Part shown: piece by piece, positions 2,434 to 23,939 of the stretch
How positions within the stretch are numbered: the stretch's first letter is position 1
How the letters are laid out: each line of letters begins with the position of its first letter
Source: Candidatus Hadarchaeota archaeon
Lineage (GTDB): Archaea > Hadarchaeota > Hadarchaeia > Hadarchaeales > Hadarchaeaceae
DNA length: 32,000 nt
NCBI GenBank assembly: GCA_964514965.1
Contig: CAZETV010000001.1
Location: 300,001-332,000 of the forward strand
Direction of reading: 5' to 3'
Position numbers and translations under genes: made by a program
The notes under the pieces: model-generated
The model's input: only the letters and a program-made list of their open reading frames with translations
The model's database searches: none
What the model was told of the DNA's origin: nothing

Positions 2434-3318
2434 ATGGGGATATCTGGAAGAACGCTCGAGGCTTTCAGACGGAGTTCCTCAGCGATATCATTTGTCATAG
2501 CCTTGAGCTTGCTCGTGATGACACTGAGCACAGGCTACCACATTTTTGCATACAATTCATCGGAGTTTCTAGAACAATCAGATGTGCAGGAATATGAAAA
2601 CGCAATTGCGACAGTCTCGCAGATGGATGAGTGGACGCTAACTAATTTTTATTGGTCAAACAACTTGAGGATAGTCGGTTTCTACATAGTCGGGATTCCA
2701 TCTTACTTCAGCTTTGATTCGCTGATGTTCAATGAATACACGATCGGCATAAATCTCGCATATTGGTATCACGCTTACGGCGCGGTAGTTTTTTTGATGT
2801 TTTTGTCAGGTCTCTTCCTTCACGGCGTGCTTGAACTTACAGGGATTTTCATTGTTGTAGCGATCACATTGCGAGTAGCTTGGAGCTTCTGGAAAGGTAT
2901 AGGACACCTGATGACATCGACAAGAAATAACAATCGGTTCCGGAAACTTTTAAACAGCACAACACAAGAAATCCGAAAAAGTGAAAGCGAAGTCAAAGAA
3001 TTGTTGGTTGATTTTCTTGTGCTCACATCATTCGGAGCATTTTTGATATTTCTCGCGGCACCCATCGAGGCCTACATTTCCCCCGCATTTATGGGTGCAT
3101 TTGTTGGAGTATTACCGTTAGCCATAACTTTTCTAGCAATTATCGCTTTCTTCTACCTATCCATCTTTATTTGGGGCCTGGGAACGATGAAAAGAGATAT
3201 TAGAGAGGTATATGACGACATTAAACTCGCTTTTGAGCGCAAGTGGCGACCTACCCATCTTTCACTTCTAATATTTGTGATATTTTTTTCTATTATGATG
3301 CTCAGCTTATTGATTTGA
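2434..3318 (+). CDS. Polytopic membrane protein, SpoIIM/DUF95-like
   Basis: 294 aa with several long hydrophobic segments. The motif LHGVLELTGIFIVVAITLRVA resembles the HG.(F/L)E(L/I) signature of the stage II sporulation protein M family. Confidence 0.55.
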   Translation: MGISGRTLEAFRRSSSAISFVIALSLLVMTLSTGYHIFAYNSSEFLEQSDVQEYENAIATVSQMDEWTLTNFYWSNNLRIVGFYIVGIPSYFSFDSLMFNEYTIGINLAYWYHAYGAVVFLMFLSGLFLHGVLELTGIFIVVAITLRVAWSFWKGIGHLMTSTRNNNRFRKLLNSTTQEIRKSESEVKELLVDFLVLTSFGAFLIFLAAPIEAYISPAFMGAFVGVLPLAITFLAIIAFFYLSIFIWGLGTMKRDIREVYDDIKLAFERKWRPTHLSLLIFVIFFSIMMLSLLI

Positions 3319-3400
3319 GCGTTTAAACTTTAGCAACCGCAAAGGAAAGCTTGAAAAGGCAGTAAAGAATTAGAATAACGGAAAGTTTCAGGTGGGAATA

Positions 3401-4573
3401 GTGAAGTATATCGTCATAGTTGGAGACGGAATGGCAGACTACCCCCTCAAAAAGCTAGGTGGTAAAACACCTCTCGAGGTCGCCGACAAACCAAACATAG
3501 ATTCTATCGCATTCAAGGGAAAAATGGGAGTTTTAAAAACAGTCCCTGATGGCATGGTTCCAGGTTCAGATGTGGCGAATCTCTCCATTTTGGGGTTCGA
3601 CCCTAGGCAGTATTACACTGGAAGAGGACCCTTAGAAGCGGGCAGTATGGGGGTTGAGTTAGGGGACGAGGATACTGCTTTTAGGTGTAATTTAATCACC
3701 GAAAAAGACGGAAAGGTTCTCGATTATTCTTCTGGACATATTTCTACCGAGGAAGCCAGAGAATTGGTCGAGGAAATGAAAAAATTAGGAATTGGGGAAT
3801 TTTACATAGGGATTAGCTATAGGCACTTATTTGTTATGCGAAACTGCAACCCGAAAATCCAAACTACTCCACCACATGACATCGTTGGAGAGTGCATCTC
3901 AGATCATTTGATAAAACCTCAGAATAGCGAAATAGTGCAGAAGCTTAACCAGTTCATGATGGATTCCAAGGATGTTCTCTCGAAACATCCAGTAAATATC
4001 GCGAGGGTCAAACAGGGAAAAAACCCCGCAAATATGATTTGGTTATGGAGTAATGGAAAAAAGCCAAAGCTGGAGAAACTGAAAGAGAAATATGGACTCA
4101 GCGCAGCGATGATTTCTGCTGTCCCGCTGATAAAAGGCATCGGAGTTTACACCGGTATGGAAATCGTCAACGTGCCCGGCGCAACTGGGTATTACGACAC
4201 AAATTACGAAGGAAAAGCGGAGTACGCTCTCAAGGCACTCGAAAACAACGACTTCGTTTACGTGCATGCGGAAGCACCGGACGAGGCTGGGCACGTGGGA
4301 GACTTAGAGATGAAAATAAAGACCATAGAAGATTTGGACAAGAGATTGGTTGGTAGAATTTTGGATGGAGCAGAGGAATGCAAAATAGCTATACTACCAG
4401 ACCACCCGACTCCCATCAAAGTCCGAATGCATGTCTCTGACCCAGTTCCATTCGCGATTTATGCGCCTAACTCAAGTGGGGATAAACTCCGCTTTAACGA
4501 GTCTTCAGCTAAAATGGGCTCGTTTGGGTCTATCGTTGGAGAGGAGTTCATGAAATTGCTCCTCACCGTCTAG
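3401..4573 (+). CDS. apgM: Cofactor-independent phosphoglycerate mutase, archaeal ApgM family
   Basis: The N-terminus reads KYIVIVGDGMADYP. Metal-binding motifs (FVYVHAEAPDEAGH, LPDHPTP) are typical of the ApgM/alkaline-phosphatase-superfamily mutase. The GTG at 3401 is preceded by AGGTGGG; the ORF track uses an alternative GTG at 3392. Confidence 0.85.
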   Translation: MKYIVIVGDGMADYPLKKLGGKTPLEVADKPNIDSIAFKGKMGVLKTVPDGMVPGSDVANLSILGFDPRQYYTGRGPLEAGSMGVELGDEDTAFRCNLITEKDGKVLDYSSGHISTEEARELVEEMKKLGIGEFYIGISYRHLFVMRNCNPKIQTTPPHDIVGECISDHLIKPQNSEIVQKLNQFMMDSKDVLSKHPVNIARVKQGKNPANMIWLWSNGKKPKLEKLKEKYGLSAAMISAVPLIKGIGVYTGMEIVNVPGATGYYDTNYEGKAEYALKALENNDFVYVHAEAPDEAGHVGDLEMKIKTIEDLDKRLVGRILDGAEECKIAILPDHPTPIKVRMHVSDPVPFAIYAPNSSGDKLRFNESSAKMGSFGSIVGEEFMKLLLTV

Positions 4574-4593
4574 AACGAATTATCAACAGCATT

Positions 4594-5679
4594 TCAGGAC
4601 TCGCTTTTTATAGCTTCTGATATCGCCCCAGCCATTTCTCCCGTACCCACAGCTGAAGAATCACGGGGATCCTCCTTCATGTCGTAGGTTACGTACTTGC
4701 CCTCGGCGATTATTTTGGCTACGGCGCCTTCCAGTTTTTGCGCAGCACTTTTTTCTCCCAAATATCGCAACATCATCACCCCTGAGAGAATCGCAGCCGT
4801 AGGATTCACTTTGTTTAGCCCCGCATATTTAGGGGCGCTACCATGCGTCGGTTCAAAAACAGCTATTTTATCGCCGATGTTTCCTCCGGGTGCGACACCT
4901 AGCCCACCAACCAAGCCAGCACAAAGGTCGGAAATTATATCTCCGTACAAGTTTGGTGCTACTATCACATCGTATAATGTAGGCTTCTGCACAAGCTGCA
5001 TGCACATGTTGTCGACAATCCGATCCTCAAATGCTATCCCGGGGAATTCCTGCGCCACCTTTCGGGCAGCCTCCAGAAAAATGCCATCCGAATATTTCAT
5101 TATGTTAGCTTTGTGCACGGCTGTAACTTTTTTACGTTCATTTTTTAGCGCATACGTGAAAGCGAAGCGCACGATTCGCTCAGACGCAAAACGAGAAATC
5201 GGTTTTAAACTTATCCCTGCATCACGGCCTATCTCTACTTTTTTCTTTTCTTTCACAAACTCGGTAAACTCCTTCGTTTCTGAGAGCCCTTCGGCAAATT
5301 CTATCCCTGCGTATAGGTCTTCAGTATTCTCCCGCACGACTACGAGGTCGATGTTGGTATACTTTGAACGCACTCCTGGATACCATTTACAAGGTCTTAG
5401 GCATGCGTACAAATCTAGCGCCTTCCGCATGGCTACATTGACACTGCGGAATCCTGAACCTACGGGCGTGGTTATCGGTCCTTTCAGGGCAACTTTATTC
5501 TTACTGATAGACTGGAGAACTTCTTCAGGCAGAGGGGTACCATACCTTTTTATGCTCCCTACCCCTGCCTCCACCTCCTCCCATTGAATTTGAGCGCCTG
5601 TGGCCTCGATGCACTTTTTCGCAGCGTCGATTACCTCTGGGCCTACCCCGTCACCAGGGATTAAAGTGACTGTATGCAT
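4594..5679 (-). CDS. Isocitrate/isopropylmalate/homoisocitrate dehydrogenase family protein
   Basis: 361 aa with [10 protein letters not shown] at the N-terminus, plus [13 protein letters not shown] and NLYGDIISD, which are hallmark motifs of beta-decarboxylating dehydrogenases. Substrate cannot be assigned from sequence alone. Confidence 0.85.
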
Positions 5680-17902: not shown

Positions 17903-18120
17903 CAGACATGATGATAAAGCGCAAAACAGAAAATATACGTATTGACGTTTAGACTTTCTTACGACTTTTGAGAAGGCTGTGTCTCCCACTCAAATGCAAC
18001 TAATCACATTCCCCAAAATCTCCTCTAATCTACGATTATTACTATTACTAATATCGAGTTGCTCCCGACATGTTCAAGGCTTGGATATTACTTATAACTT
18101 CAACATGACCAAAAATGGAA

Positions 18121-18129
18121 AATATAAAA
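18121..18129 (+). promoter_or_regulatory. Candidate TATA box for the four-gene operon
   Basis: gaaAATATAAAAcc lies about 60 nt upstream of ATG 18189 within a 274-bp AT-rich spacer. This would leave a leader carrying the AAGGAGGTGA SD. Confidence 0.3.
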
Positions 18130-18188
18130 CCGCACGATACATAAAGACGTAGGACTAGTAAAAGAGAATTAAGGAGGTGATGATAAAC

Positions 18189-18944
18189 ATGAAACTTCTT
18201 CAAATGAGTCAACTCTTTGCCCTACCCCTTCAGTCAGCTATTAAAGCGCAGAATCTTGCTCTACAGGAAACGATTTCCTCCATAGAACAGCTCGGGCTAG
18301 AGAACGGCGCGGCGAAAACTTTTCGCTTTAAAGCCGAAAGAATGATTGAGGAGAGAAAGGTTGATCCAAAAACGGGAATCCCTGAAACACAAATCAAGAG
18401 TCAACCTTTCGAAGTGAGTATTCCCCTACTTGCGATGGTTGCGCCTCCAAGTATGAACATACGCGAGATGAACGTTGAATTTGGAGTGGAGGTAGTGGAA
18501 CCAAAAACTGAACCTATTAAATCAGGTACTATCACGCCAGCGGTACTCGGTTCTTCGCTTTCTCCCTCGTTGTGTCTTTTTACGTCCCTTGGCCAATCGA
18601 ATCCGACTACAATGAAGGTTAACATGAAAATAGTTAGAGAAATTCCGGAAGGGATGGCACGGGTGGGGGATGTACTCACCGACCTTTTGAGTGGACGGCC
18701 TCCAGTGACCGATGAAAAACCAACACCCGAAATAAATCTTGATGTTGAGAAGATAGCGGGCATAGGCGCGGAAAGAGCGGCCCTTCTGAGAGGTAAGGGA
18801 ATATTTACTGTTAAGGGACTAGTCCAAGCTACAAAAACATTTGAGGGAACAAAAGATCTTGCTACGGCCATCGGCGTTTCTTCAAAGCAAATGAGAGAGT
18901 GGAGAGAGAAGGGAAAACTATTAGAAGGGGGAGAAAAATCTTAG
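18189..18944 (+). CDS. Uncharacterized protein P1: paralog-family core plus C-terminal helix-hairpin-helix (DUF4332-like) module
   Basis: A perfect SD (AAGGAGGTGA, 18171-18180) lies 8 nt before ATG 18189 (alternative starts 18177/18180). It shares with P2 the motifs ALPLQ, AIKAQ.LA.Q, S/T-(I/V)PLLAMV..P...I..M.(V/I)(E/D)F and IPEG(M/L).R(V/I).D(V/I)L. The C-terminus EKIAGIGAERAALLRGKGIFTVKGL...AIGVSSKQMREW is HhH-like. Confidence 0.75.
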   Translation: MKLLQMSQLFALPLQSAIKAQNLALQETISSIEQLGLENGAAKTFRFKAERMIEERKVDPKTGIPETQIKSQPFEVSIPLLAMVAPPSMNIREMNVEFGVEVVEPKTEPIKSGTITPAVLGSSLSPSLCLFTSLGQSNPTTMKVNMKIVREIPEGMARVGDVLTDLLSGRPPVTDEKPTPEINLDVEKIAGIGAERAALLRGKGIFTVKGLVQATKTFEGTKDLATAIGVSSKQMREWREKGKLLEGGEKS

Positions 18945-18962
18945 GGCAGGAGGTGAAATAAA

Positions 18963-19655
18963 ATGGCAAACATACCTGCAGAGTTGAGAGCTCTTCCATT
19001 ACAACACATTATTGGATCGCCACTCGTAGCAGCTATAAAAGCACAGGCCTTGGCGGCCCAGACAACTGTGAACTTTATCAAAGAGGTGGGTCTTAAACCA
19101 AGAGCTTTAGAAGCTACTGAGAGCGAAGACAATCTGGATGAAGTAACTGGAGAAAGCGGCAAACCTGGTTATGAAGCCCGATATGTAGATTTCAAGTTCG
19201 ACAGGATAATAGAAGCAGAAGAGGTCACACCCCCAGCTGCTGACGCACCAGCTGGAACACCGCCGACTAAGACGACGAAGTATAGTGTTGTACCTTCCAA
19301 GCTTACAGTGCCACTTCTTGCAATGGTACCGATCCCATATATTCGAATCAATGATATGACTATTGACTTTGAATTCCAGATCAAGGATGTAGAGACAAAG
19401 GAATCCACTACTGAAAAGAAAGTATCTATGAATGCAAAGGCGGGAGGTTGGTTCTGGAAAGTTAACGTCAAGGGTTCCTATAGTAATAGAACTGTTAACA
19501 AGCGCCAGACGGACCGAAGAACAACTCTGAAAATCACAGTTAACGCAGTACAGGACCAGATACCGGAGGGTCTTGGAAGGATTCTAGATATACTCAATGA
19601 GGCGATGAAGGTTGTCCCGTTGACTGCGCCACAGGAAATAGCCGCACCGACCTAA
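18963..19655 (+). CDS. Uncharacterized protein P2: paralog of P1 with acidic and Pro/Ala/Thr-rich linker
   Basis: SD GGAGGTGA (18949-18956) lies 6 nt before the ATG. Motifs: ALPLQHIIGSPLVAAIKAQALAAQTTVNFIKEVGL, TVPLLAMVPIPYIRINDMTIDFEFQIK, and IPEGLGRILDILNEA. The low-complexity linker reads TPPAADAPAGTPPTKTTK. Confidence 0.75.
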   Translation: MANIPAELRALPLQHIIGSPLVAAIKAQALAAQTTVNFIKEVGLKPRALEATESEDNLDEVTGESGKPGYEARYVDFKFDRIIEAEEVTPPAADAPAGTPPTKTTKYSVVPSKLTVPLLAMVPIPYIRINDMTIDFEFQIKDVETKESTTEKKVSMNAKAGGWFWKVNVKGSYSNRTVNKRQTDRRTTLKITVNAVQDQIPEGLGRILDILNEAMKVVPLTAPQEIAAPT

Positions 19656-19679
19656 TTGCATCCAGTTTAAAAAAAGATG

Positions 19680-19710
19680 GGGGGCGAAAGTAATACCCAC
19701 TTTCCCTCCC
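19680..19710 (+). other. Intercistronic stem-loop between P2 and P3
   Basis: GGGGG-c-GAAAGT / loop AATACCC / ACTTTC-c-CTCCC gives 11 pairs (one G-U) with one C-C mismatch, followed by TTT. Read directly from the sequence. Confidence 0.4.
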
Positions 19711-19741
19711 TTTGCCATAATCTAGAAAGGAGAGATTGAAT

Positions 19742-20098
19742 ATGCCGAATAATAAAGAAGGAATAAGTTTAAGCGCAGTAGTTGGAGGCATCGTGCAAGC
19801 CTTAAGGGAAGCGAAGCACTTAGGAGATATAGAAAGTGCAAAATTATTTGAAACCTATAAAAAAGAAAAGGCCCTTTACCCATTCAGTGTTCCTGCTTTT
19901 ACAATTTCTGATACAGATATAGAATTGCGGTTTTCAATTATGCAGCCTTCTGAGGAGGAGAAAAGAAAAGGGCAGATACAAGACCTCAAGGTGAATGTTT
20001 CCTCAGAGTCTCTTAAAAAACTTGAAGCACACCAAGTCAGTGCAATGAAACTCAAGATTGCCCCTGTGAGTATGAGAGTCTTCGAGGAAAAAAAATAA
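19742..20098 (+). CDS. Uncharacterized protein P3: short divergent paralog of P1/P2
   Basis: SD GGAGAG lies 7 nt before ATG 19742 (ORF-track TTG at 19736). ISLSAVVGGIVQALREAK parallels LPLQHIIGSPLVAAIKAQ. FSVPAFTISDTDIELRFSI parallels TVPLLAMV...MTIDFEFQI. It lacks the IPEG tail. Confidence 0.65.
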   Translation: MPNNKEGISLSAVVGGIVQALREAKHLGDIESAKLFETYKKEKALYPFSVPAFTISDTDIELRFSIMQPSEEEKRKGQIQDLKVNVSSESLKKLEAHQVSAMKLKIAPVSMRVFEEKK

Positions 20099-20120
20099 AA
20101 TTCTTTGTATAAGGAGGGAA

Positions 20121-21074
20121 TTGGATATAATTTCAAGGAGCGATGTCATCAGAAACGCTGAACAATATAGAAATATTCAACCTTGGACCCCGACAAATAG
20201 TACACATGGAAATTTCCACAGCGCTTTTGTACATGGCGTAGACGACCCGGTGAGTCAAGAATGTAAGATACGGCAATACGATGTCTTTCCTTACGTGTAC
20301 GGTAGAACCTCTATTCTTACCGTAAATCAATTTTTAAACGCTGTACAACATGGAACCTGCCCCGGTGGCTGGGACACACAAACGGGATGGGGCACGGGAC
20401 ATTTTGGAAATATTCGAAGAAATCTTGCAGGAATAGATTGTTCCGAGTATGTAATGAAATCTTGGGGATTTGCGAGTAAGGTAATAAATGGAACTTGGTA
20501 CGGCACGACCAATTTACCACAATTATGTTTGCAAATAAGAAGAGACGAGTTAGGCACCGGAGATATATTGCTGAGAAGGGGGCACGTTAGGATTTTTGAT
20601 CGTTGGGTTGGTCCCGGTAGAAACAATGTTTGGATATACGAAGCCGCTGGGGCGAGAGACGAAACGCAAGCCCAACGTAACGCCTTACAGTGCCCATTCA
20701 ATCCCGGTGATGACCAAGGCTGTGTAGGCAGATGGATGAGACCATGGGATGCTGGATATACGCCGTATTCACCTTTTCCCCAATTTACAGACCCAACCCC
20801 TAGTATTTTTCAAGGGACCAACCCGCCAATATCTGTAAAGATCGCGGGAAGCGGAAATATAGGTGGAATGTCTATGTCTGTTGATGATAATTCAGTAAGT
20901 TTCTCGCCCAGTTCCGTTTACGATAGAAATCGTCGCAGAGCTTGTGTCCAAATCAACTGGATACCCAATCAAAGTTTATCATTCGGAACGCACACCGTAA
21001 AAGTTGGTGCAACAAACAGAATCTTAGAAAAAAATTTTTTTGCTGGATATACTTGGAATTTCGAGATTATATGA
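20121..21074 (+). CDS. NlpC/P60-like papain-fold cysteine hydrolase with beta-rich C-terminal domain
   Basis: AGIDCSEYV (Cys107, codon 20439-20441) followed by GDILLRRGHVRIF (His155, codon 20583-20585) and WIYEAAG (Glu174). The order and spacing match the NlpC/P60 Cys-His-polar triad. No N-terminal hydrophobic signal is present. TTG start lies just after AAGGAGGG. Confidence 0.65.
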   Translation: MDIISRSDVIRNAEQYRNIQPWTPTNSTHGNFHSAFVHGVDDPVSQECKIRQYDVFPYVYGRTSILTVNQFLNAVQHGTCPGGWDTQTGWGTGHFGNIRRNLAGIDCSEYVMKSWGFASKVINGTWYGTTNLPQLCLQIRRDELGTGDILLRRGHVRIFDRWVGPGRNNVWIYEAAGARDETQAQRNALQCPFNPGDDQGCVGRWMRPWDAGYTPYSPFPQFTDPTPSIFQGTNPPISVKIAGSGNIGGMSMSVDDNSVSFSPSSVYDRNRRRACVQINWIPNQSLSFGTHTVKVGATNRILEKNFFAGYTWNFEII

Positions 21075-21118
21075 TGTTTTCCTTCTACCACATGCATTGA
21101 AGTAATAGCCTCAGCAAC

Positions 21119-22636
21119 CTACATGAACGCCTTCGCATCCTCGCGTTTGTGTAAATTACGCCGTTCGAACTCGCGTGCGGCTTCACCCAAACCAGTCCCA
21201 TGCGCCAACTCCCGCGAACTCCTCCGTCTAACTCTCACAAAGATAGGGTGATTCACGGCCTCGCCCACGACCAATGCCTCGCCCACAGGCAGCGAGGAGA
21301 TCATGTCTGCAACCTCGCTCGTTATCGCTTCCGAAGATTGTTTGATGTGCTCGAGGTCGTAGGGATTTGTGACGCGCAGGATGATGTTTGTGTTTGCCTG
21401 TGAAAGCACGGTTGTCGAGAGCCTCACTGGGCGTTGGGAAATGAGTATAAGCGAAGCGTAAAACTTTCGGCCCTCGCGAGCAAGTGTTTCAATTATCGGC
21501 CTCGAAATCGCCGTTTTCTTGGACTCGCCAGATGGGCAAAACTGATGAGCTTCCTCTAAGCAGAGCACAAACGGGGGCACGCAACCTCTTTTGCGGGCGT
21601 TAAATAACCTCCGCGTAGCATACGCCACGAAAATCTGTTTCTTCCTCAAGCTGACTACGTCGCTGAGGTCAATCACCACCACCTTTCCCGGCTCGACGAT
21701 ATTCTCCAATCTCGGACAATCGGCTAGGTCGAAGATGCCGAGTGAACGGAGGTCGAACAGCCACCCGAGCAAAGCCTGCTGAAGCTGTCTATGGATATCC
21801 CCGTCCCCATCAACCCGCGAGATGACCTCATCCAACCCAAACGGACCCTTGCCCGCACGCATCTCGGCTCGCAACTCGCCAAGCACCCGCTGAAGCTCGC
21901 GCGCTTGCATCCCGGAAATGTCGGGCATAAACTCCTTGAACTGATACGAGCTCAGGTTCGGCACGCCTATCTTGAGTTCTCTGCCTTTGACGACATTCAC
22001 GCGGTCGGGAAAACTTTCGACCAACCCAGTATACTCACCGTGAACATCAATCACGACGACAGCAGGCCGCCCCCGCTCGGGCAGACGACCTAGCAGCTCC
22101 TCAATTATCACCTGAGTGCTTACGCTCTTGCCGGCCCCACTCATTGCGAGCACCGCTACATGTTTACGCAACAGCCTCGTAAGGTCGAGCTTCACAGTTA
22201 GCTCGTGGTGCTTGAGTTTGCCCAGCCCTACCCCGTCGTCCGGATTTAATCCGAGAAATCGCGTTAGCACATCTAATCTAACTTCTTGCACTTTTTGCCC
22301 AGGTGACGGCGGGAAAGTAGTCCGCTCAAGCCCATACTCAGATTGGACCCCGAGCGCCTGAGCTTCGGCTATGAGGTACTCCCAGCGATCTATAGGAAAG
22401 ACTGTCGCCAGTGGTCTGCCGCCCCGCTCGTACTCTTTGACCGACTCGGCCCGCATGAAATACCGATTGGTTTTCATCAAGTTCGTGACGAAGGCTATCA
22501 CCCGCCCTTCCTCGGTCTCGACTTCTACGAATTGTCCTTTTCGAACCGGCATCTTACTTTGGGCCTCGGTGACTACGAAGGAAAATTTGCTTGGTGAGGG
22601 ACCATCCCCTGTAGCGACAATTGTTCCCAATTCCAT
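21119..22636 (-). CDS. herA: HerA-type hexameric DNA translocase/helicase (FtsK-HerA superfamily)
   Basis: 505 aa. The N-terminus is HAS-barrel-like (FSFVV...KGQFVEVE...GRVIAFV). Walker A LAMSGAGKS and Walker B-like VVVIDVHGEY are present. It lies 9 bp downstream of nurA. Confidence 0.85.
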   Translation of the reverse strand: MELGTIVATGDGPSPSKFSFVVTEAQSKMPVRKGQFVEVETEEGRVIAFVTNLMKTNRYFMRAESVKEYERGGRPLATVFPIDRWEYLIAEAQALGVQSEYGLERTTFPPSPGQKVQEVRLDVLTRFLGLNPDDGVGLGKLKHHELTVKLDLTRLLRKHVAVLAMSGAGKSVSTQVIIEELLGRLPERGRPAVVVIDVHGEYTGLVESFPDRVNVVKGRELKIGVPNLSSYQFKEFMPDISGMQARELQRVLGELRAEMRAGKGPFGLDEVISRVDGDGDIHRQLQQALLGWLFDLRSLGIFDLADCPRLENIVEPGKVVVIDLSDVVSLRKKQIFVAYATRRLFNARKRGCVPPFVLCLEEAHQFCPSGESKKTAISRPIIETLAREGRKFYASLILISQRPVRLSTTVLSQANTNIILRVTNPYDLEHIKQSSEAITSEVADMISSLPVGEALVVGEAVNHPIFVRVRRRSSRELAHGTGLGEAAREFERRNLHKREDAKAFM

Positions 22637-22645
22637 GAATTCACC

Positions 22646-23821
22646 TCAGAAAGGTCTCCGGTTCCGCCTCAGGTCGAGCAAGGCAGAGGGGCCGAGACGA
22701 TCCGCGATGCTGTCGCGCACGATGCTCAAATCCTCCTCGGTCAGACGGGCACACACATCCGCCTCGATGAGCACCGAAGGGAGCCCGAAAGCATCATGGT
22801 GAGAAGAAAGCGCGTAGACGAGCGGCGCGACGCTATCTGCAGTCGCCACGGGGTCGTCTCTGAACTCGATGAACTCCACTCGCAACGGGCGGTCGAACAG
22901 CACGGTCTTGAGGTAAAATGCGTAAACTCGCATCGCCCATTTGCCGATGTCGCGAAGCACATATTTCGATGGGCTCTCGGCATAGTGGAAGATGGAGGTA
23001 CGTTCTCCCACTCCGAGCACGTGATCGAGGAGAACTGTGTCCCGCGAGTGTTCTAGAATCTCCAGCTCTTTTTCTTCGAGGCCGAGACCACCTAAACTTG
23101 GTATCACTTTATGCCTGATGATATCGATAAAGCGCCCACCCCGGCTGTCCTTAACCGCGCCTGCAAGCAGAACCCCCGACTCCGCGCAGGTCTCGTAAAG
23201 CTTCGTGTACGCATTGAGGAGTTCGTGATAACGTTCAAGCAAGCTTTTGTTGTGGGGAAAGCGGTCGATGTACTGGGGCACTACAGAGCCGTCCAGTAAC
23301 AGGAGTTTAACTTCATTTGCTCGGAGCGCCTCGGTAGCGAGCTCAATTTCAGTCAGCTGACGTTCCATTCCGGCAAGGAGCTCAAATTCTCGAGCATCCA
23401 GCGGTTCCGTAACGTCAATCAGGCAAGGAAATGGTATCTCGCTTGGGAAGTATTTGGCCCACTCCAGACCGGCTTTGTGATAGTGAAATATTGCAACAAT
23501 CGCTCGCAAGAGGATGAGATCTAGACCATGAAGCTGCTGCTCTAGCATCCCTCCATCTACACCCGCTACCGTCAAATCCGCGAGTGCGTCTTGCTTAATC
23601 GGCTCCACGAGAGAATGCTCAATAATTTCTTCCACACCATCCAAAGCCACCTCCCTTAACCCAACGAGAGCCTTGGCAACCTTTCGCCTTTGCCCTTCCT
23701 GTTTGCGTATTCGCTCGGCTATGCTGTCAAGTGTGTCCTCAAGTCCTGCGTGTCCCTCTGAGAAACCAAACTTTCGTACAGGTGAAACCATTTGATCACC
23801 CATTTCACCGCTCGGACCCAT
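22646..23821 (-). CDS. nurA: NurA 5'-3' nuclease
   Basis: About 391 aa from ATG 23821 (GGGGGAGG SD 4 nt upstream; the longer ORF-track start at 23920 is unlikely). VAGVDGG and LLLDGSVVPQ motifs are typical of the NurA domain. It is paired with herA. Confidence 0.8.
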   Translation of the reverse strand: MGPSGEMGDQMVSPVRKFGFSEGHAGLEDTLDSIAERIRKQEGQRRKVAKALVGLREVALDGVEEIIEHSLVEPIKQDALADLTVAGVDGGMLEQQLHGLDLILLRAIVAIFHYHKAGLEWAKYFPSEIPFPCLIDVTEPLDAREFELLAGMERQLTEIELATEALRANEVKLLLLDGSVVPQYIDRFPHNKSLLERYHELLNAYTKLYETCAESGVLLAGAVKDSRGGRFIDIIRHKVIPSLGGLGLEEKELEILEHSRDTVLLDHVLGVGERTSIFHYAESPSKYVLRDIGKWAMRVYAFYLKTVLFDRPLRVEFIEFRDDPVATADSVAPLVYALSSHHDAFGLPSVLIEADVCARLTEEDLSIVRDSIADRLGPSALLDLRRNRRPF

Positions 23822-23900
23822 TTTTCCTCCCCCGATTTGGGAATGTGGAAGAATATTTAAGTGGATTTTGGGGAGAGGTCGGCGAAAGTAATTTATAAGG

Positions 23901-23908
23901 ATTATAAA
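23901..23908 (-). promoter_or_regulatory. Candidate TATA box for nurA-herA
   Basis: The minus strand reads ccTTTATAATccTTATAAATta, two TATA-like elements forming a 7-nt-arm inverted repeat (23892-23908), 70-80 nt upstream of the nurA ATG. Confidence 0.3.
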
Positions 23909-23939
23909 GGGGTGAAACAACCGACCTTCGAATGCCCAA

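Follow-up and report, generated by a model that had tools for sequence, protein, structure and literature searches.

The open reading frame (ORF) at positions 20121-21074 (+) of the window, a 32,000-nucleotide stretch of contig CAZETV010000001.1 from a Candidatus Hadarchaeota archaeon, encodes a hydrolase that sequence comparisons support as a divergent papain-like cysteine peptidase domain of the NlpC/P60 superfamily. The gene is the last of four tightly spaced genes on one strand (DUF2589a(HhH)-DUF2589b-AF_0414-hydrolase, 18177-21074), which together form a horizontally acquired cassette (Table 1). There is about an even chance that the protein is an exchangeable, peptidoglycan-directed module of this mobile cassette, released or delivered with the aid of DUF2589 proteins and aimed, in its present host, at a foreign wall. 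For this reading we infer a peptidoglycan substrate, the bond that is cut, a role of the DUF2589 proteins in export or delivery, and an ecological role. By analogy with other NlpC/P60 enzymes, the hydrolase would most likely act as an endopeptidase or an amidase on the stem peptides of bacterial murein. The trio of DUF2589-type proteins may form an assembly through which the signal-less enzyme gains access to the wall, whether it is released or delivered. In the Hadesarchaeal host, foreign bacterial peptidoglycan would be the target, either for antagonism or for feeding on cell-wall debris; the target must be foreign because the host has no wall based on Mur ligases.

A word-indexed search of 5.8 billion proteins yielded 17 relatives of the protein, and HMMER, run exhaustively against 1.8 billion cluster representatives, yielded 94; the counts given here refer either to the 76 relatives that cover the catalytic core or to the 18 closest sequences (alignment A1). 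Residues 1-216 are read as one NlpC/P60 domain with two family-specific insertions, at about residues 22-52 and 62-103. The putative triad consists of Cys107, His155 and Glu174. Among the 18 closest homologues, His155 and Glu174 never vary, and Cys107 is kept in 17, the remaining one having Ser; variation at the third triad position, as found among the 76 relatives, is typical for NlpC/P60 enzymes. In the AlphaFold2 (AF2) model (mean predicted local distance difference test score, pLDDT, 78.8), helix 107-114 (pLDDT about 87-95) begins with Cys107, strand 155-162 begins with His155 and strand 169-176 contains Glu174, a predicted placement that corresponds to a papain-like arrangement. As is usual in the superfamily, the Cys stands in a D-C-S-G-like motif, and the His follows it at a distance of about 40-60 residues, behind a GD-hydrophobic motif. 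The family profile (A1) matches E. coli Spr/MepS in the PDB at E 0.003-0.005, with GIDCS placed on GIDCS(GFV) and GHV on the catalytic HV. Weaker phmmer matches among the 1.8 billion proteins (E 1e-6 to 1e-4) all cover residues ~100-180, and of ten that were scanned seven contain PF00877, four of them above the cut-off. When the family alignment is compared by hhalign with an alignment of small NlpC/P60 proteins (A2), the probability is 99.8% (E 7e-30), and the Cys, the His, the YE glutamate (the counterpart of Glu174) and the next strands are aligned. The N-terminal helix and the PYVYGG motif match the canonical NlpC/P60 N-terminal helix and its Y-x-W-G-G, as in A2.

The gene is a genuine ORF of 317 amino acids (aa) with a TTG start, and the stop codon of the preceding gene lies at 20096-20098. 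Between the in-frame stop upstream and the start of the hydrolase there is space for only 15 codons, which makes a signal peptide impossible. The (M)ITRxDVI motif opens the N-terminus (residue 1-3, profile position 1) in 43 of 43 close relatives, all of them leaderless, and the highest Kyte-Doolittle mean over 19 residues of the hydrolase is 0.72. About 30 more distant, stand-alone relatives (e.g. P0030, P0041 and P0043, from WOR-3, Elusimicrobiota and Bacteroidota-type contigs) share with the window enzyme the N-terminal helix motif, the core, the SPFPQF linker and the first immunoglobulin (Ig)-like domain. Unlike it, they carry a typical Sec leader of 19-38 residues immediately before the same N-terminal motif, are often 600-1400 aa long and have no DUF2589 genes nearby. 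Many of them are long surface proteins with type 9 secretion system (T9SS) sorting domains, Big_5, VWA or dockerin domains, and with PG_binding_1 just below threshold. No cassette-linked relative has a Sec leader, and in a maximum-likelihood tree the leaderless proteins form a single group (94/96 support), separate from the secreted ones. Together, the split in leaders and the tree suggest that the family module works extracellularly in one branch and has lost its own export signal in the other. The missing leader also fits a cytoplasmic catabolic peptidase that degrades imported muropeptides, or gamma-glutamyl or D-amino-acid peptides, for nutrition and has no link to export. Cytoplasmic NlpC/P60 recycling enzymes exist (e.g. 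B. subtilis YkfC), and archaea of the subsurface are believed to subsist on peptides from detritus. This explanation is nevertheless very unlikely: the cassette brings along neither a transporter nor any other catabolic gene, a recycling enzyme would not be expected to have an Ig-like domain or three conserved partners that are not enzymes, and the nearest relatives outside cassettes are secreted.

The C-terminal part of the hydrolase is predicted to be an Ig-like beta-sandwich. Its Foldseek matches (probability 1.0, E 2.8e-4 to 8e-4, template modelling (TM) score on the target 0.57-0.62) are to SYG-2 D4, MuSK Ig3 and titin M10, and two family members have weak Big_7 matches. A first-pass annotation, made from the sequence alone, had described the protein as NlpC/P60-like, with Cys107, His155 and Glu174 in the order and spacing of the family triad, no secretion signal and a beta-rich, Ig-type C-terminus of about 90 residues. 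The family assignment holds at the level of sequence profiles, through the MepS match, the phmmer link to PF00877 proteins and the hhalign comparison. The triad is confirmed by its conservation (Table 1), the missing signal by the short distance to the upstream stop, the leaderless close relatives and the low hydropathy, and the Ig-type tail by its confident model and structural matches. Non-conservation of the Cys and His in homologues had been named as an observation that would speak against the assignment; both residues are conserved instead.

The strongest argument for a peptidoglycan substrate is that one and the same slot of the cassette is filled by unrelated peptidoglycan-directed modules. 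In each of 19 dereplicated cassettes whose contig leaves room downstream, AF_0414 is followed by a fourth gene, as a rule no more than a few tens of nucleotides from the AF_0414 stop codon. This gene is NlpC-like in 12 of the 19, a tally biased by the fact that some loci were retrieved using the hydrolase itself; among loci retrieved by DUF2589b alone the division is about 7 to 7. In other cassettes the slot is taken by an M15-like protein with an SxHxxGxAxD motif (L042; E 0.0017), by a protein that combines two PASTA domains with a DUF4332 tail (L061; E 1e-19), or by a Cys-His amidase of CHAP-like type (L049), whose 25.8 bits fall short of the cut-off of 26. The fourth slot is exchanged among wall-directed modules, and this replacement also argues against the cassette's own proteins as the substrate. 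The neighbours of 73 dereplicated DUF2589 loci, retrieved by DUF2589b alone and independent of any hydrolase, were examined as well: among 96 same-strand neighbours the most frequent Pfam domains are PG_binding_1 (8), PG_binding_3 (6) and the N-acetylmuramidase PF11860 (5). These PG_binding and muramidase neighbours are also leaderless. On a viral IMG/VR contig (L124), LytTR, DUF2589, an unassigned gene, a second DUF2589 and three small genes are followed by Muramidase+PG_binding_1 (E 3e-67).

The same gene order is found in at least 19 dereplicated loci in bacteria and archaea, and the cassette recurs in Cyanobacteria, Bacteroidota, Calditrichota, Bacillota and Actinomycetota. The four-gene order is present in a Nostocaceae metagenome-assembled genome (MAG), in Bacteroidota, Calditrichota and Desulfotomaculum MAGs and on many metagenome contigs; a Streptomyces version is more divergent. 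Conservation differs strongly between the four proteins. DUF2589b of the window is 89% identical to its counterparts in the Calditrichota and Desulfotomaculum MAGs and 81% identical to that of the Nostocaceae MAG, whereas identity to the bacterial cassette copies is 59-65% for DUF2589a, about 60% for AF_0414 and only 41-45% for the hydrolase. Constraint so far above that of the operon partners is as expected for a self-assembling structural protein. In its AF2 model (pLDDT 67), DUF2589b has a long N-terminal helix, four long amphipathic strands (16-19 residues) and a C-terminal helix. The AF_0414-type protein is probably a shortened DUF2589 paralogue, since hhalign aligns the two at 75% probability (E 2.6e-5) over the N-terminal helix and the VP..A..P.P strand motif. 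In the literature searched, DUF2589 is mentioned in two papers only and is given a function in neither; according to one of them, the AF0414-AF0417 genes of A. fulgidus are induced on lactate.

The conservation of DUF2589b bears on an explanation in which the enzyme serves maturation or assembly: as a cysteine peptidase or transferase working inside the cell, it would prepare the DUF2589 proteins for assembly by trimming, cross-linking or acylation, and peptidoglycan would not be its substrate. Such a role would suit four proteins that are all leaderless and tightly co-operonic, a partner whose conservation across an archaeon and bacteria resembles that of a self-assembling structural protein, and a host without murein. 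Moreover, the NlpC/P60 superfamily includes LRAT acyltransferases and phage tail-assembly proteins, e.g. lambda gpK. The explanation is nonetheless quite unlikely. In other cassettes the slot holds unrelated peptidoglycan modules, including the non-catalytic PASTA protein, and muramidase+PG_binding_1 proteins lie near distant cassettes. Close stand-alone relatives of the hydrolase are secreted surface proteins, and the hydrolase evolves much faster than the proteins that it is supposed to process.

The host genome (1.28 Mb in 3 contigs, 94.5% complete) is archaeal, as the first-pass annotation had supposed: its small-subunit (SSU) rRNA reaches 1489 bits with the archaeal model, and the HerA encoded next to the cassette falls into a 90% cluster in which the named members are Hadesarchaea. 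A scan of the genome revealed no Mur-ligase homologue (Mur_ligase_M), no PF00877 protein and no contractile sheath gene. From the lack of a Mur-ligase homologue we conclude that the host builds neither murein nor pseudomurein, and pseudomurein as a substrate in the host is rejected at this level of completeness; delivery by a contractile injection system is rejected for lack of a sheath gene, and we conclude that no known injection system is available for the enzyme in this host. The annotation, which had looked at the gene by itself, had listed bacterial walls, pseudomurein and an intracellular lipid among the possible targets. The cassette context narrows this list towards bacterial peptidoglycan, so that bacterial walls are favoured over pseudomurein and over an intracellular lipid.

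The cassette was acquired horizontally: the gene is present in 1 of 66 genomes of the phylum, the site is empty in genomes of the same genus, and the inserted block is low in G+C (GC; Table 1). In the same-genus genomes G022, G023 and G021 no cassette separates the flanking core genes orf252 and herA, which are neighbours at a distance of 82 to about 700 bp. In a fourth genome of the genus (G024) the orf252-herA gap is about 2 kb long and contains a 324-aa ORF and a tyrosine-recombinase fragment. The gap is an insertion hot spot in the genus. On a sister Hadesarchaeal contig (L022) the cassette occupies the same site, and its proteins are 89-90% identical to those of the window cassette. The tree places the Hadesarchaeal pair deep within a set of unlabelled metagenome sequences, and the labelled relatives are all bacterial. 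Synonymous divergence (dS) between the window and L022 copies is 0.25-0.28 (0.09 for AF_0414), and the ratio of nonsynonymous to synonymous divergence (dN/dS) rises from 0.11 and 0.07 in the DUF2589 genes to 0.20 in AF_0414 and 0.24 in the hydrolase. Judged by these ratios, the hydrolase is under purifying selection.

The arrangement of a signal-less hydrolase of interchangeable catalytic type beside small partner proteins recalls holin-endolysin cassettes and type 10 secretion systems (T10SS), in which the small partners are needed for the hydrolase to reach the wall (PMC10847048, PMC10109510). The parts are unrelated, however. Holins are membrane proteins, whereas the DUF2589-type proteins have no transmembrane helix, so that no known holin-like mechanism applies. 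The cassette proteins have no PHROG matches and are nearly absent from phages: distant relatives of DUF2589b were found in 1 of 50,697 phage (GenBank) records and on two IMG/VR contigs. Furthermore, the DUF2589 cassette also occurs in archaea that lack murein.

From the likeness to these systems (PMC10847048, PMC10109510) follows another explanation, a cassette for self-lysis or release: in bacteria, the DUF2589 proteins would break through the membrane, and the wall of the producer itself would be opened by the hydrolase. In the archaeon such a cassette would be inert cargo, without a target and not yet decayed. The LytTR regulators in front of distant cassettes, the two viral contigs, the location in a hot spot with integrase remnants in a relative, and the fact that the hydrolase has the highest dN/dS of the cassette are all consistent with it. 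Still, this explanation is unlikely, as the triad is intact and dN/dS is 0.24 over a dS of 0.25 in two Hadesarchaeal lineages at the same site. A host without murein, an intact triad and purifying selection argue against a purely self-lytic role. The lack of a transmembrane helix in the cassette proteins, of PHROG matches and of DUF2589b relatives in more than one phage record also speaks against it.

Several observations weigh against the exchangeable, wall-directed module proposed here. The hydrolase itself has no match in Pfam (even at E<=10), NCBIfam, PHROGs or PADLOC, nor in the PDB by phmmer, and PF00877 is detected in only 3 of the 18 closest family members, always below threshold (best E 0.054). 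Residues 20-105 are poorly modelled by AF2 (pLDDT 42-63 for residues 20-100), and when the whole-protein model, with this poor region, is compared by Foldseek with the PDB and BFVD, the top 50 matches are Ig domains only and include no NlpC/P60 structure. The hydrolase has no recognisable peptidoglycan-binding domain, and its dN/dS is 2-3 times that of the two DUF2589 genes (0.07-0.11), which makes some relaxation possible. As for the slot, the CHAP and M15 matches fall below the Pfam cut-offs, two classes of fourth genes (a 218-aa archaeal class and the class of L050) have no assignable function, and five of the PG_binding and muramidase neighbours are near-identical copies from one lineage. 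With regard to export, the DUF2589b model has no fold match in the PDB by Foldseek (best E 0.36, TM 0.1), and no 19-residue stretch in the four proteins exceeds a Kyte-Doolittle mean of 1.46, below the usual 1.6 for a transmembrane helix.

A bolder form of the proposal takes the DUF2589 trio to be a new machine without a transmembrane helix, perhaps a beta-rich pore or tube, that moves signal-less hydrolases across bacterial and archaeal membranes, with the Hadesarchaeon using an imported, complete bacterial export-plus-weapon kit to attack or digest bacterial walls. It is doubtful, yet worth serious consideration. Low-ranked Foldseek matches of DUF2589b to pore-forming toxins and tail-tube proteins involve long beta hairpins only and are not relied on.

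Compared with characterised enzymes, the catalytic domain is closest in outline to E. coli MepS/Spr (PF00877; PDB 2K1G, 8XUD), with which it shares the GIDCSG-type Cys motif, the GHV His motif and the order and spacing of the triad. MepS, in contrast, is a small lipoprotein with a signal peptide and has neither an Ig domain nor insertions of 30-40 residues. The small NlpC/P60 proteins of A2 (DCSGYVS...GHVRLF...WxYE), several of which pass PF00877, have the same catalytic core, but with 110-230 aa they are smaller, and many begin with a hydrophobic leader; they also lack an Ig domain, and no cassette is known around them. Archaeal peptidoglycan hydrolases are known to kill bacteria, a precedent for the reading proposed here, and signal peptides are present in only 32% of them (Strock et al. 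2025, PMC12352652). Enzymes of this kind (Woldo/Danwoldo) resemble the window enzyme as bacterial-type wall hydrolases acquired by a murein-less archaeon, and many of them have no signal peptide; they differ in that they were found through Pfam pairs of catalytic and binding domains, and in that those tested have Tat signals (PMC12352652). The window hydrolase, by comparison, is invisible to Pfam, has an Ig-like domain in place of a peptidoglycan-binding one and is tied to a DUF2589 cassette.

Table 1. Features of the accessory block and of the hydrolase gene (window coordinates).
Feature	Position	Strand	Remarks
Inserted accessory block (cassette and AT-rich leader)	17903..21118		GC 0.431, against 0.506 in the left and 0.548 in the right flank
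DUF2589 paralogue a, with C-terminal HhH/DUF4332-like tail	18177..18944	+	PF11655 E 2.5e-14; HHH_5 and DUF4332 below threshold
DUF2589 paralogue b, best-conserved cassette protein	18963..19655	+	PF11655 E 2e-30
AF_0414-type small protein, 120 aa	19736..20098	+	Homologues at the same position annotated PF27375
Shine-Dalgarno-like AAGGAGG	20111..20117	+	3 nt 5' of the TTG start; direct sequence reading
Putative NlpC/P60-superfamily catalytic domain, residues 1-216	20121..20768	+	Conservation, profile matches, AF2 model
Predicted catalytic Cys107, codon TGT, in NLAGIDCSEYV	20439..20441	+	Cys in 74 of 76 relatives; aligns with the catalytic Cys of MepS
Predicted His155, codon CAC, in GDILLRRGHVRIF	20583..20585	+	His in 76 of 76 relatives; aligns with the MepS HV motif
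Predicted third triad residue Glu174, codon GAA, in WIYEAAG	20640..20642	+	Glu in 70, His in 3 and Gln in 3 of 76 relatives
SPFPQF linker between domains	20769..20786	+	S217, P218, F219, P220 and Q221 invariant in alignment A1
Predicted Ig-like beta-sandwich, residues 225-317 (93 residues)	20793..21071	+	pLDDT 95-98; Foldseek Ig matches in PDB and BFVD

Two further cysteines of the hydrolase, Cys80 (20358-20360) and Cys136 (20526-20528), tend to occur together: among the 76 relatives 44 have both, 15 neither and 17 only one. The pair may form a disulfide or a metal site, although the link between them is loose and the sequences, being related by descent, are not independent data points. The idea that a Cys80-Cys136 disulfide marks an extracellular life was dropped, both for the weakness of the co-occurrence and for this non-independence.

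Leaders are also found among DUF2589 proteins. Two distant homologues (P0242 and P0246, alignment A3) have Sec-type signal peptides right before the conserved ELxxLPF motif, and the DUF2589 fold therefore seems able to work outside the cytoplasm too. The split into leader-bearing and leaderless DUF2589 proteins parallels that in the hydrolase family. An HhH/DUF4332-like module is present both at the C-terminus of DUF2589a (18741-18941) and at the C-terminus of the PASTA-containing fourth gene product (L061 2108-3412), which hints at a role in docking between parts of the system, and not in DNA binding.

The 218-aa fourth gene is found in archaeal cassettes (L040 7063-7716, and L060 979-1632; a CetZ-bearing archaeon and a Candidatus Hodarchaeota MAG; also P0250) and has invariant SE, RNR and FW motifs; it has no Pfam or PDB match. 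A suspected resemblance of this class to SleB was supported neither by Pfam nor by phmmer against the PDB nor by the family profile against the PDB, and was dropped. In alignment A5, Peptidase_C70 (an AvrRpt2-like papain-fold protease, E 1e-34) adjoins two DUF2589 loci, and a phage-type integrase adjoins five. The cargo slot may also take non-muralytic papain-like proteases, and the cassettes may often ride on integrative elements.

The surroundings of the insertion vary among relatives. In the loci compared (L036-L039), the orf252-herA gap is empty in G022 (82 bp); in G023 three copies of AATAATTGCGCAGGTGCGCAA flank a small ORF within it, and in G021 it holds a ribbon-helix-helix-like pair of small genes. 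The AATAATTGCGCAGGTGCGCAA repeat of the G023 hot spot is absent from the window. In the sister contig L022, a gene for an extra 533-aa beta-helix protein (3160-4761) lies between a cyclophilin-like gene and orf252, and the window lacks it. A herA-nurA pair (21119-23920) is located directly beside the insertion. Besides NurA, the window encodes a Cdc48-type ATPase and ordinary biosynthetic genes; neither mre11 nor rad50 was seen among the window genes scanned.

The fold of the enzyme is familiar, but the present branch of the family escapes Pfam and NCBIfam, and surveys of archaeal peptidoglycan hydrolases based on Pfam domains would consequently miss it. The context of the gene outweighs its fold in importance, as it points to an exchangeable, wall-directed slot in a widespread DUF2589 cassette found in both domains of life. 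The archaeal copy amounts to a natural experiment, in which a host without murein keeps the triad under purifying selection. This copy provides a tractable system for learning how signal-less lysins exit cells and whether archaea of the deep subsurface attack or scavenge bacterial walls.

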